Shown one piece after another: positions 27,001 through 33,000 of a DNA stretch of 64,000 bases. Positions within the stretch are counted from its first letter, which is position 1, and each line of letters opens with the position of its first letter. The DNA is from Gammaproteobacteria bacterium (GTDB taxonomy: Bacteria; Pseudomonadota; Gammaproteobacteria; SZUA-152): NCBI GenBank assembly GCA_021647705.1, contig JAKIUF010000007.1, positions 9,141-73,140 of the forward strand. Direction: 5' to 3'. The position numbers were made by a program.

Positions 27001-30000
27001 GAAGCTATCGTTATCGATACTGCGGGTCGTTATGCCGTGCCGGATGATGAAACTCGTGATCGTAAAGAATGGTCAACGCTGCTTGGCATGCTGGCACGCC
27101 ACAAGCAAAAAGAACCTATCAACGGGCTCGTGGTGGTAGTTTCTGCTGATCGTTTGCTCAATAACAATGAAGACTCCCTGACGGAAGAAGGCCGTCAGGT
27201 ACGCGCCTCCGTTAATGAACTGATGGAAAAACTTGAGGTTCATGTCCCTATCTATTTGATGGTCACCAAGTGTGACCTGATTGATGGATTTTCTGACTGG
27301 TGTGGTTATGTGCCGGAAAAATCCTTGTTACAGCCCATGGGTTTCCTCAAGGAAGAGCAAGGTGGCGACATTCATACCGTTCTGGACCAGGCGCTGGACA
27401 GCGTACTGGACCGCATGAAGGATCTGCGCTTGCTGATGCTGGAGCGCAGTCAGAATGTCGATGACTCCCTGCTCACCCTGCCCCGTAACATGGAAAAATT
27501 ACGCACCGGTCTGCATGCCTTTATCAAAGCGGCATTGAAAGAAAACCCCTATCAGGATACCCCCAAATTCCGGGGACTTTATTTCAGTTCCAGCCAACAG
27601 AATATTGCTGCGCATGATGGCAGCACAACAGCGCGCGATCACGGCATGTTTTTACAACAGCTGTTTACCCGGGTCATGCCTGCTGACCGCGGTCTGTTGG
27701 ATACCCTGCCCAGTGCTGCACGTCTGCGTCGGGCAGCCTTGCAATACAGCCTGAGTATTGGCGGAGGTCTGACTCTGTTTGCCTTTATTGCGCTGACGGT
27801 ACTGTTCACCAGTGATCACGCCCGCCTGAAAGAAATTCAATCTGTATACAGCTCGATTGATCTCCAGCAGAAAGGGATTAATGAACAGGTTTATGCTCTG
27901 AATAATCTGCGCAACCTGATCCTCGAACTGAGCAACGCGGAAGACTCATGGGTAATTCCCTGGCCTGGCCGTTTTTCCCGGTCTGAACAACTTGAAAAAC
28001 TGGTTACTGCCTACAATGAACAGTTTAATCAACAAGTCCTTACTACACTGGACAACCCCCTCAAAAAGACCATTGCCATGCTGGAGCCAGAAGTTACCAG
28101 TGACATGGCCGGTGGTTTGATTCGACGGATTAACCTGATCAAGACACGCATACAGGGTAACCCCGAAGTCTCGCTTGACGACAAACCTGCTATTTCCCAT
28201 GAATATCTGTTGGTCGCAAATAACAATTTCAACCGCGATACCGCCCTGCTTTTTAATGATCTTTACATCACCTATCTTCGTCAGACGCAATCACCTGCCC
28301 GCCTTGCAGAAGAAAGTGGCGCACTGCAGGACGCGCTCCTGCAATTGATCAAGCGCACTTATGGAGACTATAGCTGGATCATTGCATGGGCGAACAGTCA
28401 GGGCTTTGACCCTGTCACCCTTGAGCAATTTTGGGCAGGCAGTCGTGACCTTGAAGCCCCACCGGTTGTTGAGGCCGCCTACACTCTGCAAGGTCATGCC
28501 TTTCTGGTTGATTTTTTAGTTGAGCTGGAAGCGGCCAACGATGGTGCCAGCCGCCTGGCGGATATCAAAGAAGAGTTTGAAATCTATTACGAACGTCAAT
28601 ACATCATGGCCTGGCAGGAATTTGCCGAACGATTCGGTGAAGGTAAAGACAAGTTACGCGACAAAAAAGAATGGATGTTTTCCCTTGAACGAATGGCATC
28701 ACTTGATAACCCCTATTTTGCTCTCATGAAACGTGTCAATGATGAGTTAAAACCATTCCCAGACGCAGCACAACAGTTTGAAGCACTGGGTATGATTACC
28801 TATTTCAACGAAATGCTTGCCTATACCAAAAAAGAAGGGGGTGGCAATAATTCAGCCCTGACAAAAATGGCACTTAAGATAGTGGGCAAGGCAGGTAAGG
28901 CAGGCAAACTCGTTGCCAAAGTCGGCAAAAAAGGCATGAAAGCCAAAAAGAAACTGGGGGGTAAAGGTGCTGCCCAAATGGCAAACGTCATCGAAGATGC
29001 CGCCAAAGCGCTGGATGAATATAAAAAATCTTTACTGGACGTTGCATTCAGTGCTGAATCAGGTTCTCAATCTTATGCCACAACGACCGCTTTATTTAAA
29101 AACCCGGATAACCCCGGTGCCGGTGATGGTGCTGCCGCCGCTGCCTGGAAAGCTATCATTCAACTACAGCGACTCATTGGCAAACCCTTGCCCAGCACAA
29201 AAGTTTTTTGGAGTCTTTATATGGGACCACTCTATCTTGCACGTGATTATATGCGTGAAGAAACCTCCTGCTATTTACAGGACAAATGGCAGAATGATGT
29301 ACTGGCAGGTATAGAGGGTGTCACCAAAAACAAGCTTGGCAATACGTTGATTGGCGAACAGGGACTGGTATGGAAATATGTAGAAAGTGATGGCGATCCA
29401 TTTCTTGATAACCCGCCCAAAAAAGGCTATCTGGCCAAAGACCTGAACAGTAAGCGCATTCGCTGGGCTCCGGAGTTTATGAACTTTATCAATGAAGCTG
29501 CAGCCGGACGATACATTGTTGGTAGTCAATTTTCGGTCAGGCTTAACGCATTGCCCACCGGGGTAAATCAGGACGCCAACATATCGCCCTATGCAACCTT
29601 TTTAACATTGCACTGCGCTGACGGTGTGCAGGAACTGGCTAACTACAACTATCCCGGCTCCACTGAGTTCAAGTGGTCACTGGAGACCTGCGGTGATACG
29701 ACCCTGCAAATCGAACTGGGGCACATCACCCTGCGCAAACAATATCCGGGCCCCAAGGGGTTTGGCAAATTCCTGGATGATTTCAGGGATGGGCGGCGAA
29801 TCTTCGTCGCTAAAGACTTTCCGGAAACCCAGCGAAAACTGTTGAAAAATGAAGGCGTACTCGCAGTGGATGTGAACTACGAGATTTTTGGCCAGGGACC
29901 CGTTATTCAAATGCTGGACGCAGTGCCTATGCAGGCACCTCCACGCGCCACTTATTGCTGGTAACGGGCTACCATGGCAAACTCGTCACAACAAAGCATT

Positions 30001-33000
30001 GAGCGCGTCAACCTTGTCTACCGTTCCGGTGACAAGAAAACCGGCATGGATGTCGAACTGCCTTTTCGCACACTGGTTCTTGGTGACTTCACCCAATCCG
30101 GGACCTCTGAAATCTTTGATGGACAGACGCCTATTTCTGTTACCACAGACAACATCAATGATGTGATAAAAGGTCTTGGTATTGAGCTGGTGATCAACGT
30201 CCCTGATTGTTTAATGGATGACGAATCATCTGACAATTTAACCATCACATTGCCCCTCACAGCGATTAGCGATTTCAGCCCGCAAACAATTGTTGGCAAC
30301 GTCCCCTGTTTGGCGAAACTGGCGGCGTTGAGAAAACAGTTATTGTCGATACTGGAAGGTGATCTGGAAGGTAAGAAAGCCACCGGGCCTGACACCCTGA
30401 TGCAAAGTGATGAAGACGTTGCCGCCTTTGTTCAGCGCTATGCGCTCGATGACCAGCTCAGTCAATCGTCCCTGAGCATTCTGGTCACCGAAATTGATGA
30501 ACGTCTCAGCCGTCAGATGGACACTATTCTTCATCACAAACAATTTGAGACAATGGAGTCTGTCTGGCGGGCGCTGTATTTTCTGCTCGAACGAACGCCC
30601 TTCGAAGAAAATTGTACGGTTGAAATTCTGAATATCAGCAAACAGGCTCTGCTTGAGAACTTTGAGGACGTACCTGAAACAATCCAGTCAGAACTTTATA
30701 ATATTGTTTACAGTGCCGAGTTCGGCCAGTTCGGTGGTCGCCCCTTTAGTGTCATCATCGGCAATTATGACTTTGGCCCATCCGCACCGGACATGCGCCT
30801 GCTTCAACAAATTGCGGCTGTGAGCAGTATCTCCCATGCGCCCTTTATTGCGGCAGCTTCTCCCGACTTTTTTGATATCGACAATTTCTCCGGGCTGACC
30901 CGGATTCGCGACCTGAGTGCCATCTATGAACAACCCCGCTTTGCCAAATGGTGTTCATTTCGGGAATCAGAAGATGCGCGTTACATCGGACTGACGTTAC
31001 CCGGCTTTTTATTACGGACACCCTGGGAGTCCGATGTTGATGGTGCATTTAATTATCAGGAACGCTACCACAAAAATCAGGTGGGGGGTCTGTGGGGAAA
31101 TTGCGCGTTTGCGTTCGCGACACGACTGCTCGACAGTTTTTCCCAATACCGATGGTGCCTGAATATCAGTGGTGCGGAAGATGGAAAAGTAGCGGGTTTG
31201 CACATGACCAGCAAAACAAACAGCCATCGTTCAATAATACCTGCCCGTGTATTGATCTCTGACCGACGTGAATCAGAACTCGTTAAACACGGGTTTATTC
31301 CACTCAGTGTGCGTAAGGGAAGCGATACGGCCGCCTTTTATTCCGCCCAGTCGGTACAATCCGTCAAAGTATTTGCTGATACAGAAGAAGGGCGGGCTGC
31401 GACCCTCAATCACTTGTTGGGAGCACAATTCCCCTACCTGTTTATCGTTTCCCGACTGTCACACTATTTGAAAATGATGCAACGAGAAAATATTGGCGGC
31501 TGGAAAACACGACTCGATATCGATAAAGAACTCAACAACTGGCTGCGCCAATATGTATCCGACATGGATAACCCGACCCCGGCAGTGCGTGCTCGTCGCC
31601 CGTTACGCAAGGCACAGGTTAAAATTCGTGAAGTGGAAGGTAAAAACGGCTGGTATTTAATCAAACTGGTCGTTGTGCCCCACCTAAAATATATGGGTGA
31701 GTCCTTCTCGTTAAACGAGACAGGCAAACTTGACCTTGCCTAAACAGCCTTGAGAGGAAATAAAAATGCCATTACCCGGAAACATAACCATCATCGGCGA
31801 AGAACAGGGCCAGATCGAAGGCTCTTGCGATACTGATGGACGAGAAGGAACGATACAGGTTCTGCGTTTTGACCATAGCGTGGAAATCCCCACCAGCGCC
31901 GATGGCATTACTGCGGGGCGTCGGGTTCACCGCCCTTTTACCATCAGCAAGGAAACTGATAAAAGCACGCCCATGTTATTCCAGGCGCTGTGTACCGGCG
32001 AGCTGTTAAGCGAGGTGATACTGAATTGGTACCGTATCGATGGCACCGGAGAGCAGGAACTCTACTACACGATCAAGCTTTACAATGCGCTGATCAGCAA
32101 AGTACGCCCCTGGGTGCCTGACATACTCGACCAGAGCAAAAGCGCTTATCGACACATGGAAGATGTTTCTTTTACCTATGAAAAAATAATCTGGACATGG
32201 GAACCCGACGGCATCGAATACGAAGATGCCTGGGGTGAGATGGTATAAGCCGACACATGTCTAACGAACGCCTCCTGAAACGCATCAAGCAATGGAATAT
32301 GCGCCAGGTTCCGGCTGCGGACCACAATGTGTATATTGAGTCGGTTCTGGCTGACCTGTCCATGCTGTACAACACGCAACATGGAACCGCGCTGATAGAC
32401 AACGCTTATGGTTTACCGGACTTTACCAATATTTTTAACAACCTGACGCCACCGGATATCGACATGATGCAACGCGCCATCATGGACACAACGAATCGTT
32501 TTGAACCCAGACTTAAATCGGTCACCGTAAACCATGAAGACCGAAAAAATGAATTTGGATTATTGAGATTTACCGTATCCGCCCAACTGATGTACCTGGA
32601 TGGATTGTCCCCCCTGAACTACAGCGTATTACTCAATGGCGATGGCAGTGTCGCCATCGAGGTTAAATAAGGGTCACAATGAGCACGGACTATTACAAAA
32701 TAACCAATGTAGGGTGGAGCAAGCGTAGCGGTTCCGCCCTACGACTGAACTACAGCGTATTGCTCAATGGTAATGGCAGTGTCACCATCAAAGTTAAATA
32801 AAGGTCACAATAAGCACAGAATATTACAAAATAACCAATGTAGGGTGGGCATGTTTTTTTGCCCACGCGGATGCAGAGTTACCGCGTGGGCACAAACTAC
32901 GTGCCCACCCTACGGCTGAAAACACCGTCATTCCGGCATGTTTTTAGCCGGAATCCAGGGGCTTAAACCCCCGAACACTCGTACCGGTGCATTGGGAAGT

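Follow-up and report, generated by a model that had tools for sequence, protein, structure and literature searches.

The window (the whole 64-kb stretch of DNA that was analysed) contains one type VI secretion system (T6SS) locus, in which Pfam and NCBIfam profiles identify a canonical sheath/tube set (tssB1, tssC1 and hcp1), a fused tssBC gene and a second hcp gene (hcp2). The genes tssJKLM, tssEFG and vgrG are each present once, which corresponds to a single baseplate and a single membrane complex; both this count and the positions of tssB1 and tssC1 had been given in a first-pass annotation and agree with the profiles. The genes surrounding the two sheath/tube sets are as follows.

tssA, 19103..20767, forward strand: ImpA_N and VasJ domains (Pfam PF06812, PF16989)
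tssJ, 23753-24400, forward strand: Pfam SciN
tssK, 24422-25807, forward strand: Pfam VasE
tssL, 25811-26488, forward strand: Pfam DotU
tssM, 26509-29964, forward strand: synteny with the IcmF-related tssM of relatives
tssE, 32257..32670, forward strand: gp25-like baseplate/sheath-initiator subunit (TIGR03357, 74 bits; PF04965)
tssE-tssF spacer, 32671..33320, no strand: 650 bp
tssF, 33321-35048, forward strand: Pfam TssF
tssG, first ATG 35252, end 36049, forward strand: Pfam TssG; frame open from 34991
vgrG, 36054-39347, forward strand: Pfam
DUF2169-pentapeptide gene, 39350-42220, forward strand: spike accessory (Pfam)
pentapeptide gene, 42205-43272, forward strand: spike accessory (Pfam)
DUF3540 gene, 43257-43931, forward strand: spike accessory (Pfam)
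PAAR-like gene, 43956-44363, forward strand: spike accessory (Pfam)
DUF3467 gene, 44402-44707, forward strand: spike accessory (Pfam)

The sole membrane complex plus TssK is encoded at 23753..29964, and vgrG with its spike accessory genes forms a module (36054..44707) of a type that has been described (PMC11883445, PMC13373197, PMC13584744). The sole tssA at the locus adjoins tssB1; its listed start is a TTG and overlaps tpsB, a divergent ORF, which leaves in doubt where the gene truly begins. Translation upstream of the first ATG of tssG matches the TssG N-terminus of a relative (L009). In relatives, tssE and tssF are only 2-45 bp apart (by the relatives' coordinates), compared with 650 bp here, where the 3′ end of tssE occurs four times (the native copy in tssE, two copies in the spacer and one straddling the start of tssF), interleaved with GTAGGGTGG palindromes.

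The canonical set comprises three genes and a gap.

tssB1, 20771..21262, forward strand: small sheath subunit, 163 aa (PF05591, 1.7e-54; TIGR03358, 178 bits, above cut-off)
tssC1, 21322..22800, forward strand: large sheath subunit, 492 aa (TIGR03355, 670 bits)
tssC1-hcp1 gap, 22801..23160, no strand: 360 bp; position of clpV in more distant relatives
hcp1, 23161..23679, forward strand: tube protein, 172 aa (TIGR03344, 220 bits)

TssC1 aligns to the VipB chain 5mxn_A from residue 19 (E 5e-219) with its VipB-type N-terminus intact, and its residues 18-32 are the ClpV-binding motif VSLLDQIMEQTRLKP, which is conserved across the clade. The hcp1 gene has its own upstream region with a strong Shine-Dalgarno (SD) sequence, and among solved structures Hcp1 comes nearest to P. 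aeruginosa Hcp3 (3he1, 2e-74) and V. cholerae Hcp. No clpV was found anywhere in the 64-kb window (tblastn with ClpV gave nothing below E=1.6), a point that the first-pass annotation had missed, and the 360-bp gap holds no clpV remnant; it contains a GTAGGGTGG...CCACCCTAC palindrome at 22893-22925, flanked by direct repeats of ~50 bp. Close relatives likewise lack clpV at the locus, whereas more distant relatives carry it (between tssC1 and hcp1 in L001, L003, L004, L022, L036 and L048). Because the locus and its close relatives are without clpV, the earlier argument about ClpV needs a qualifier.

The second set lies between tssM and tssE.

tssBC, 29974..31743, forward strand: in-frame TssB-TssC fusion, 589 aa, uninterrupted ORF
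TssB-like part of tssBC, 29974..30357, forward strand: aa 1-128, with the N-terminal arm, beta strands and helix 111-127
tssBC junction, 30358..30450, forward strand: aa 129-159, replacing the TssB C-terminus and the TssC N-terminus
TssC-like part of tssBC, 30451..31743, forward strand: aa 160-589, corresponding to TssC1 residues 59-490, with a gp25-like C-terminal domain and C-terminal strand
hcp2, 31766..32248, forward strand: full Hcp, 160 aa (TIGR03344, 163 bits); ATG start with SD

An in-frame fusion followed by a second hcp had been read from the sequence at first pass, and both the open frame and the profiles bear this out: Pfam places T6SS_VipA at aa 8-136, VipB at 170-462 and VipB_2 at 476-585, and the NCBIfam matches cover positions 41-473 of 473 of the TssC profile and 5-135 of 160 of the TssB profile. 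The TssB-like part aligns from residue 1 with TssB1 residues 1-127 (42% identity, a single 1-residue gap), with positions 5-132 of 155 of the PF05591 profile and, strongly, over residues 1 to ~128 in hhalign. The TssC-like part is about 47-48% identical to TssC1, in an alignment ending no more than 2 residues from both C-termini, and matches VipB 3j9g_B (E 3e-151). Hcp2 is 37% identical to Hcp1, and the solved chain nearest to it, 4hkh_A, was deposited under the name 'Putative type VI secretion protein'. The second set is divergent, as had been supposed, but closer to the first than the one-third identity once estimated (48% for the TssC part, 42% for the TssB part and 37% for Hcp).

At the junction, about 35 C-terminal TssB residues have been lost, together with N-terminal TssC residues: 58 by BLAST, possibly only ~37 by profile alignment. 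The loss of about 55 TssC residues noted earlier thus stands as a loss, with an extent of 37-58 and the missing TssB C-terminus to be added. Conservation in the family is lowest at the junction, which varies in length (30-48 aa over aa 126-165) and has two short predicted helices, 139-145 and 147-156 (AF2, pLDDT 50-82). No ClpV-binding helix is found in it by alignment to TssC1 or by profile alignment; a junction helix aligns weakly and ambiguously, in the profiles, with either the TssB C-terminal helix or the TssC helix at ~43-52. The first proposal, that the fusion lacks the ClpV-binding helix while TssC1 keeps it, is upheld by BLAST, profile alignments and conservation across the clade. The AF2 model of the fusion is confident (pLDDT 85, pTM 0.88); for its comparison with VipA/VipB, an earlier suggestion, Foldseek reports TM 0.79-0.88 (normalised to the VipB/TssC chains) and 48-52% identity to VipB chains. 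[quoted passage not shown] Alignment and model together indicate that sheath domains 1 and 2 and the two polymerisation arms are all retained in TssBC.

An identical protein is present in NCBI (MCF6255637.1, MCF6259970.1), and its 90% cluster holds nine further 589-aa members, drawn from separate assemblies in NCBI, Logan and ENA. Together they provide the independent view of the junction that had been called for. In the database search proposed alongside it, the fused architecture turned up in more than 120 clusters when grouped at 90% identity and in ~34 at 50%. The fused family is monophyletic and reaches 31% identity, with 66 invariant columns across 63 sequences; judging from these sequences, the fusion arose once. 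The order tssA-B1-C1-(clpV)-hcp1-JKLM-tssBC-hcp2-EFG-vgrG is found in every relative whose flanking sequence is long enough, including those at only 31% identity: tssBC sits between tssM and hcp2-tssE-F-G, canonical tssC1 and hcp1 lie upstream wherever the flank reaches, and hcp2 directly follows tssBC in all sampled dual-sheath loci with sequence past tssBC, except in the distant relative L090, where tssBC is followed directly by tssE. Since L090 has no hcp2 there, the pairing of tssBC with hcp2 is not obligatory. The tssBC-hcp2 pair stands upstream of tssEFG, in the slot that ancestrally held tssB-tssC-hcp.

A recent duplication of the sheath/tube set within the locus was considered and rejected, as TssBC shares up to 57% identity with TssC proteins from other lineages but 47% with the neighbouring TssC1.

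An ATG start with an SD was found in 3 of 20 tssBC genes, compared with 66 of 70 canonical tssB genes; the 20 fused genes form one clade, so a Fisher test overstates their independence, and SD/start-codon strength is a crude measure of abundance. The fraction of tssBC genes with both signals resembles that of tssE, F, K and M (0.17-0.37), and tssBC starts only 9 nt past the tssM stop. With an omega of about 0.05-0.06, tssBC is evidently functional and under purifying selection. Its dN (0.086-0.10) is like that of baseplate/membrane genes, whereas that of tssC1 is 0.023-0.026, so that the fusion evolves ~4x faster than TssC1. The hcp2 gene has an omega of 0.018, a constraint equal to that on hcp1. 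The weak translation signals of tssBC suggest a low-copy component; they disfavour a bulk sheath role and, beside the alternative tails and the mixed sheath first predicted, bring in another possibility, a specialised layer of low copy number.

The closest relatives of TssBC in sequence and fold are the VipA/VipB sheaths (Vibrio cholerae and other T6SSi; PDB 3J9G, 5MXN, 5URW), which share domains 1 and 2, the TssB N-terminal arm, the TssC C-terminal strand and a complete T6SS locus. TssBC differs in being one chain instead of two, in lacking the TssB C-terminus and TssC N-terminus that form the domain 3 surface, in coexisting with a canonical pair, in evolving faster and in its weak translation signals. 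Single-chain protomers of domains 1 and 2 also occur in R-type pyocin and phage sheaths, which have no T6SS recycling domain and are not recycled (PMC5807055); however, identity to these is 8% or less (Foldseek) and TssBC retains a domain 3 remnant, and it clearly derives from TssB plus TssC, not from phage sheaths.

The first-pass annotation did not count a fused TssBC among the described standard components of a T6SS. This claim to novelty is weakened: fused architectures are common in databases, and a different natural TssB-TssC fusion, TssCL, was reported in roseobacters beside separate tssB and tssC (Suria et al. 2022, PMC9515649). Both are single ORFs in which Pfam finds VipA and VipB domains, both lie in T6SS clusters that keep separate tssB and tssC genes, and both are known from sequence alone. 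TssCL, as described, has 1,684 aa and two VipA domains, belongs to H1-like (group 3) clusters of Alphaproteobacteria and was reported absent outside that class; TssBC has 589 aa, one VipA domain and a trimmed junction, and belongs to a VipB-like system of Gammaproteobacteria, paired with a second hcp.

We tentatively favour a role for TssBC as a minor, ClpV-blind layer of the sheath, specialised and probably adjoining the baseplate. TssB1/TssC1/Hcp1 would be the ordinary VipA/VipB/Hcp-like set, which forms most of the tail and bears the ClpV docking helix. TssBC would be a single-chain protomer in which the T6SS-specific surface domain 3 is reduced to a short variable linker; because domains 1 and 2 and both knitting elements are kept, it could polymerise with sheath subunits, and because the ClpV-binding helix is absent, ClpV would have no direct grip on it. 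It would form a low-copy layer in the same tail, most likely the ring or rings adjoining TssE, with Hcp2 supplying either the corresponding tube ring on VgrG or a ring that carries cargo; its position and stoichiometry we infer from weak proxies. Precedent for dedicated first-layer paralogues is found in the extracellular contractile injection system PlPVC1, where a divergent sheath and a divergent tube paralogue, Pvc4 and Pvc5, lie in the baseplate-proximal first layer and other paralogues build the trunk (PMC12546770). The similarity of TssBC to these is remote and of fold only (Foldseek E ~5e-5, TM 0.35-0.5, 8% identity), and what we propose is a functional analogy. To our knowledge, differentiation of this kind has been shown for no T6SS.

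Several observations sit less easily with a minor layer. All 42 of 42 hcp2 genes have an ATG and a good SD; together with the constraint on hcp2, this suits a protein made in quantity more than a ring of six copies. In single-sheath loci, proteins of the Hcp2 type serve as the usual main tube. L090 has no hcp2 beside tssBC, and a contracted ring that resisted ClpV and stayed on the baseplate could impede re-use, not help it.

Some of these features would suit two alternative complete tails fired from one baseplate, TssB1C1/Hcp1 (ClpV-recycled) or TssBC/Hcp2 (not recycled, perhaps with different cargo or conditions of use), a reading we consider rather unlikely while taking it seriously. Each set is complete in sheath and tube and under strong purifying selection, the fusion has all core polymerisation elements, Hcp2 is strongly initiated and of a type that is the sole tube elsewhere, and the pair fills the ancestral slot. 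However, a full sheath needs roughly a thousand subunit copies, with which weak tssBC initiation (in 17 of 20 lineages) is hard to reconcile; moreover, the only tssA adjoins tssB1, a full-length unrecyclable sheath would be costly, and the fusion evolves far faster than TssC1.

Scattering of TssBC through a TssB1C1 sheath, where protomers without a ClpV handle could tune stability, contraction or the rate of ClpV disassembly, is improbable. The conserved handshake arms make co-polymerisation plausible, the ClpV helix is missing and low expression would make TssBC a minority subunit, but the linked second Hcp and the conserved site beside the baseplate genes would go unexplained, and random protomers with another surface domain could disturb the domain 3 packing of extended sheaths (PMC5807055). 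Slightly less probable again are separate roles, with Hcp2 an effector-carrying 'minor Hcp' and TssBC a non-sheath protein (a cap, an assembly chaperone or a TssE/TssA-binding regulator). Bacteroidales T6SS loci do have several Hcp paralogues, of which one builds the tube and others are specialised, some forming effector-recognition rings (PMC13213661), and both the L090 arrangement and the differing translation signals of tssBC and hcp2 would fit; yet those Hcps belong to effector-linked cassettes of T6SSiii, whereas Hcp2 is linked to a fused sheath gene and baseplate genes and, L090 excepted, follows tssBC, whose highly conserved complete sheath core with both donor arms argues for incorporation into a sheath lattice. 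That a frameshift joined tssB2 and tssC2, or that the second set is a decaying pseudogene, has practically no chance of being right: the circumstantial signs (clpV lost from the locus in the clade, repeats expanding the tssE-tssF spacer) are outweighed, and the reading refuted, by the independent assemblies, the clusters sharing a single ORF, the low omega, the confident model and a junction free of stops or frame changes.

Specialisation of TssBC as a minor layer would be placed in a conserved, old T6SS subtype, in which two sheath/tube sets accompany one baseplate and one membrane complex, and whose dual-sheath layout has been kept in many environmental bacteria.

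The gene tssBC is one uninterrupted open reading frame of 589 amino acids in which a TssB and a TssC are joined in frame, as the first-pass annotation had proposed; its continuity and its Pfam and NCBIfam domains bear that proposal out. There are three Pfam domains in the fusion: T6SS_VipA (aa 8-136), VipB (aa 170-462) and VipB_2 (aa 476-585). The TssC core is matched by PF05943 (6e-106) and PF18945 (8e-39), and the TssC equivalog TIGR03355 (cut-off 271.5) matches with 517 bits, covering positions 41-473 of its 473. The TssB part scores 87 bits with PF05591 (VipA; Pfam cut-off 24) and 88.4 bits with the TssB equivalog TIGR03358, over profile positions 5-135 of 160; the latter score falls short of the 97.25 cut-off, as the match lacks the last 25 positions of the profile at its C-terminal end. 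The unfused genes of the same locus (tssB1, tssC1, hcp1) are closer to the fusion and to Hcp2 than the one-third identity estimated earlier: residues 160-587 of the fusion correspond to TssC1 59-490 with 48% identity, residues 1-126 correspond to TssB1 1-127 with 42% identity and one gap of 1 residue, and the two Hcp proteins share 37% identity.

Genes and elements of the locus
19103-20767, tssA
20771-21262, tssB1
21322-22800, tssC1
22801-23160, gap of 360 bp in the place of clpV, with a GTAGGGTGG...CCACCCTAC palindrome between direct repeats of about 50 bp
23161-23679, hcp1
23753-29964, tssJ, tssK, tssL and tssM
29974-31743, forward strand, tssBC
31766-32248, hcp2, encoding a complete Hcp
32257-32670, tssE
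33321-35048, tssF
ending at 36049, tssG
36054-39347, vgrG
ending at 44707, DUF2169 / pentapeptide / DUF3540 / PAAR-like / DUF3467 set
7206-7279, 22893-22925, 32709-32717, 32840-32913, 33182-33252 and 55605-55678, palindrome family

Domain searches found the canonical sheath set beside the fusion and single copies of each of the baseplate genes, the membrane-complex genes and vgrG, in agreement with the earlier description, and the observation as a whole (ORF, domains and locus layout) is confirmed.

A sequencing frameshift or stop at the junction is ruled out by the continuous ORF, by the identical protein in independent assemblies and by hundreds of homologues. The exact 589-aa protein is present in NCBI (MCF6255637.1 and MCF6259970.1, from a Gammaproteobacteria MAG), where its only annotation is ‘contractile sheath large subunit’. 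Its cluster at 90% identity holds nine further members of 589 aa, from separate NCBI, Logan and ENA assemblies, and one partial member from a hydrothermal vent metagenome. The first-pass annotation had advised that the junction be checked and other single-polypeptide homologues be sought: the identical proteins confirm the fusion independently, and homologues are plentiful. A word-indexed search gave at least 120 clusters at 90% identity (566-627 aa, three Pfam domains, 47-98% identity to the fusion), and an exhaustive search of 50%-identity representatives gave about 34 clusters of 540-628 aa that align with the whole length of the query as one stretch, at identities as low as 31%. Database labels such as ‘sheath large subunit’ or ‘ImpC’ conceal the subtype, which occurs in marine, vent and subsurface Gammaproteobacteria.

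The gene order is the same in all relatives for which sufficient flanking sequence is available, namely tssA-tssB-tssC-(clpV)-hcp-tssJ-K-L-M-tssBC-hcp-tssE-F-G-vgrG. The window, too, has a fused and a canonical sheath, two hcp genes and one tssJKLM/EFG set, the combination defined in the present analysis as the dual-sheath T6SS subtype.

Relatives' loci with the dual-sheath order (percentages are identity to the fusion of the window)
L001/L002, Thiotrichaceae MAG, 48%
L003, 55%
L004/L005, 52%
L006/L010, Ectothiorhodospiraceae MAG NORP100, 83%
L008, 98%
L009, 84%
L022, L036 and L048
L080, Saccharospirillum
L091, 31%

In one further locus (L090, 94-2264, 35% identity), on a short contig of 3 kb, tssE overlaps the end of tssBC and hcp2 does not lie between them; thus, the pairing of tssBC with hcp2 is not universal.

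[quoted passage not shown] Residues 9-125 of the fusion correspond to residues 9-124/125 of the VipA chain of the contracted Vibrio cholerae sheath 3J9G, and residues 168-588 to residues 6-431/432 of its VipB chain, i.e., the fusion spans just the ordered parts of that structure. Among solved sheaths, the fusion is closest to V. cholerae VipB and Myxococcus xanthus TssC, not to Pseudomonas aeruginosa TssC1. As had been claimed, the N-terminus of TssC, including the ClpV helix, is absent from the fusion, in which the alignment begins at TssC1 residue 59; profile-profile alignment found no confident counterpart of the ClpV-binding helix (TssC1 residues 18-31), and the fusion is shorter than TssB1 and TssC1 together by a net 66 residues. 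Structural modelling, which had also been proposed, was carried out with AlphaFold2 on an alignment of 63 sequences (pLDDT 85.3, pTM 0.88), and Foldseek matched the model to VipB/TssC chains with TM 0.79-0.88. The model retains sheath domains 1-2 and the handshake donor arms, a TssB helix (111-127) and a TssC helix (164-186), with two short helices between the latter two (139-145 and 147-156; pLDDT 50-82). This junction segment has the lowest conservation in the family and varies in length by 18 residues. Since helix 147-156 gives an equal and modest profile-profile match to the C-terminal helix of TssB and to the TssC helix at about 43-52, the exact break points are uncertain. The N-terminal TssB arm is present, the C-terminal TssC strand is kept, and the termini align essentially end to end with those of TssB1 and TssC1; the parts by which protomers are linked to one another in the lattice of the sheath are therefore present. 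By domain content and fold, the fusion belongs to the T6SS sheath family but lacks two of its canonical features: the protomer is not a heterodimer of two polypeptides, there being one ORF here and in all relatives, and the ClpV-docking N-terminal helix of VipB type, present in TssC1, is missing.

TssC1 aligns with VipB from residue 19 (E 5e-219) and has the ClpV-binding motif SLLDQIMEQTRLKP. In more distant relatives, clpV (product of 859-869 aa) lies between tssC1 and hcp1. It is missing from that position in the window, L006/L010, L008, L009, L080 and L091; the loss is common to the window, L006, L008 and L009, and is found separately in L080 and L091. No ClpV or clpV remnant was found within the 64-kb window. 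The TssC1 motif is unaltered in the clades without a local clpV, which suggests that ClpV is encoded elsewhere in their genomes.

The 18 fused proteins are monophyletic in a neighbour-joining tree of the TssC-homologous region, as are the canonical partners from the same loci, and the two subtrees share their internal topology. This implies a single origin of the fusion, which has since been inherited together with the canonical sheath. The fused part has a mean identity of 47% with the TssC1 of its own locus and of 49-52% with TssC of other lineages, the maximum (57%) being with TssC of Desulfobacterales-type loci (order tssJKLM-A-B-C-hcp-E-F-G-clpV). The Hcp of these loci resembles Hcp2 (50-57%); Hcp1 resembles PDB 3he1 (P. 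aeruginosa Hcp3) and the Hcp whose gene diverges from tssA in several loci of Pseudomonas. A recent tandem or in-locus duplication of tssB1C1 is ruled out by the TssC identities (47% vs at most 57%) and by the unlike Hcp types. We infer that the place of tssBC-hcp2, ahead of the baseplate genes, is the ancestral one for a sheath-tube set. With midpoint rooting, the tree places the fused proteins, on their long branch, outside every canonical TssC sampled, probably owing to long-branch attraction.

In comparisons with L009 and L006, tssBC has dN of 0.086 and 0.100 and omega of 0.05-0.06, and tssC1 has dN of 0.023 and 0.026 and omega of 0.013-0.019; omega is 0.018 for hcp2 and 0.017-0.027 for hcp1, all omega values being rough, as dS is near saturation. 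Baseplate and membrane-complex genes have dN of 0.04-0.12. The amino-acid rate of TssBC is thus at the level of baseplate and membrane proteins, not of the main sheath. These figures argue for a clearly functional TssBC, and decay to a pseudogene is ruled out by its omega and deep conservation. An ATG start with a Shine-Dalgarno sequence is found in 3 of 20 fused tssBC genes vs 66 of 70 canonical tssB genes (Fisher p = 6e-12, which overstates independence, the lineages being related). Nine of the 20 fused genes start with GTG or TTG; in the window, tssBC starts 9 nt past the tssM stop and lacks a Shine-Dalgarno sequence. The ATG with Shine-Dalgarno sequence is present in all hcp1- and hcp2-type genes and in 17-37% of tssE, F, K and M. 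This hints at low output of TssBC, and at output of Hcp2 that is not low. Codon bias (Nc, GC3) was uninformative as an expression proxy in this genome.

The reading that we favour, at somewhat less than even odds, is that TssBC forms a low-copy specialised sheath layer in the same tail as TssB1C1. Such a layer would be ungrippable by ClpV and would most plausibly be located next to TssE at the baseplate, and Hcp2 would form either the corresponding ring of the tube, on VgrG, or a ring that carries cargo. Its adjacency to the baseplate and its low copy number are suggested by the gene position, the baseplate-like rate and the weak translation signals. A precedent exists in PlPVC1, in which Pvc4, a sheath paralogue, makes up the first layer and is in contact with one ring of Pvc5, a tube paralogue, the trunk being built by other paralogues (PMC12546770). 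Homology to Pvc4/Afp4 was not borne out, the match being one of remote fold (TM 0.35-0.5, 8% identity); the likeness of TssBC and Hcp2 to Pvc4 and Pvc5 is one of functional analogy only. More tentatively, as a proposal that we hold to be somewhat unlikely, the whole would be a differentiated T6SS tail, in which TssBC and Hcp2 rings on the baseplate nucleate a recyclable trunk of TssB1C1 and Hcp1; if true, it would be the first T6SS of that kind.

The main rival, which was the first option of the first-pass annotation, is that two alternative complete tails share one baseplate. The strong translation signals and ordinary character of Hcp2 are in keeping with such tails, whereas the weak translation signals of tssBC and the single tssA speak against them, and we regard them as unlikely. 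A sheath heteropolymer in which TssBC is sparse is improbable. Separate roles for TssBC and Hcp2, for which the minor Hcps of Bacteroidales offer a comparison (PMC13213661) and to which the L090 locus, with tssE directly after tssBC, lends some weight, are more improbable still.

A natural TssB-TssC fusion beside the unfused pair has already been published: TssCL of roseobacter T6SS clusters, with 1,684 aa, two VipA domains and one VipB domain, occurs beside unfused tssB and tssC and was not detected by its authors outside Alphaproteobacteria (Suria et al. 2022, PMC9515649). The fusion described here resembles TssCL in that one ORF holds VipA and VipB and that its cluster also has tssB and tssC in unfused form. 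However, TssCL has two VipA domains in about 1,684 aa and belongs to an alphaproteobacterial, H1-like (group 3) cluster, whereas the present fusion is of 589 aa with one VipA domain and has its relatives in Gammaproteobacteria MAGs; compared with the description of TssCL, it is also distinguished by its trimmed domain 3, its VipB-like character and a second Hcp at a fixed position. In the literature on fused or dual T6SS sheaths, the TssCL report was the only one found, and the trimmed form of about 580 aa was not described. The novelty claimed earlier for a fused TssBC holds, then, for that trimmed form with its second Hcp, but not for the general idea. The finding is real and conserved, and is a variant form of fusion rather than a categorically new one. 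Metagenomes also contain untrimmed full-length TssB-TssC fusions (database proteins P0133 and P0127, 653-711 aa) and TIR-TssB-TssC proteins (P0145, 795 aa; P0187, 1,106 aa, with a weak TIR match). Two very long matches, P0160 and P0143, contain several sheath copies together with kinase or TssK pieces, and are read as merged gene calls rather than as TssCL-like proteins.

Several other features of the region were observed. VgrG has 1,097 aa and weakly matches an Ig-like domain of Pfam, below the threshold; it is followed by DUF2169-pentapeptide, pentapeptide, DUF3540, PAAR-like (Tox-PAAR-like) and DUF3467 genes, and the set at 36054-44707 matches the description of a non-canonical spike-tip accessory module (PMC11883445, PMC13373197). 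The first ATG/GTG/TTG of tssG (34991-36049) is at 35252, and the frame is open from 34991. The translation upstream matches the N-terminus of L009 TssG; a frameshift is ruled out by this match to relatives and by the open frame, only a canonical start being missing, and tssG probably has a non-canonical start or is coupled to tssF. The tssE-tssF junction (32614-33358) is enlarged to 650 bp, vs 2-45 bp in relatives, and contains four degenerate copies of the tssE 3′ end with interleaved palindromic elements; three of the four continue into sequence like the start of tssF, which in the last copy is the true start. In L008, the relative at 98% identity, the metagenome contig stops just past tssE, as expected if this repeat breaks assemblies. 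Hairpins in the junction might attenuate transcription into tssF, G and vgrG. REP/MITE-like intergenic palindromes with GTAGGGTGG termini occur at 11 sites in the window, where chance would give 0.3, and most of them form inverted pairs that span 25-75 bp. Immediately upstream of tssA, and transcribed away from it (8499-19123, reverse strand), is a two-partner secretion pair, comprising a 2,870-aa TpsA (TPS domain) and a ShlB/POTRA TpsB; a ShlB/TPS pair also lies directly after tssG, in the place of vgrG, in L004 (15367-19271) and L005 (15136-17684), and thus the subtype may be recurrently linked to TPS systems. A 358-aa ORF adjoining queA (4709-5785, reverse strand) has no Pfam match.

To our knowledge, every mechanistic model of the T6SS presupposes that a machine has a single sheath heterodimer and a single structural tube protein, and that ClpV acts through the N-terminal helix of TssC to recycle the entire sheath; initiator-layer logic is so far known to us only from phage T4 and extracellular injection systems. 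The present loci represent a widespread, evolutionarily stable subtype with a second, single-chain sheath protomer from which the recycling handle has been removed, a second tube protein, and one baseplate. If the differentiated tail is true, T6SSs too would use initiator-layer logic, and disassembly by ClpV would be spatially restricted by omission of the docking helix from the first layer. The natural fused sheath with a trimmed domain 3 may also have engineering value as a minimal scaffold. The positions of TssBC and Hcp2 would tell whether T6SS tails differ in composition along their length, and how initiation of the sheath is spatially separated from its recycling.
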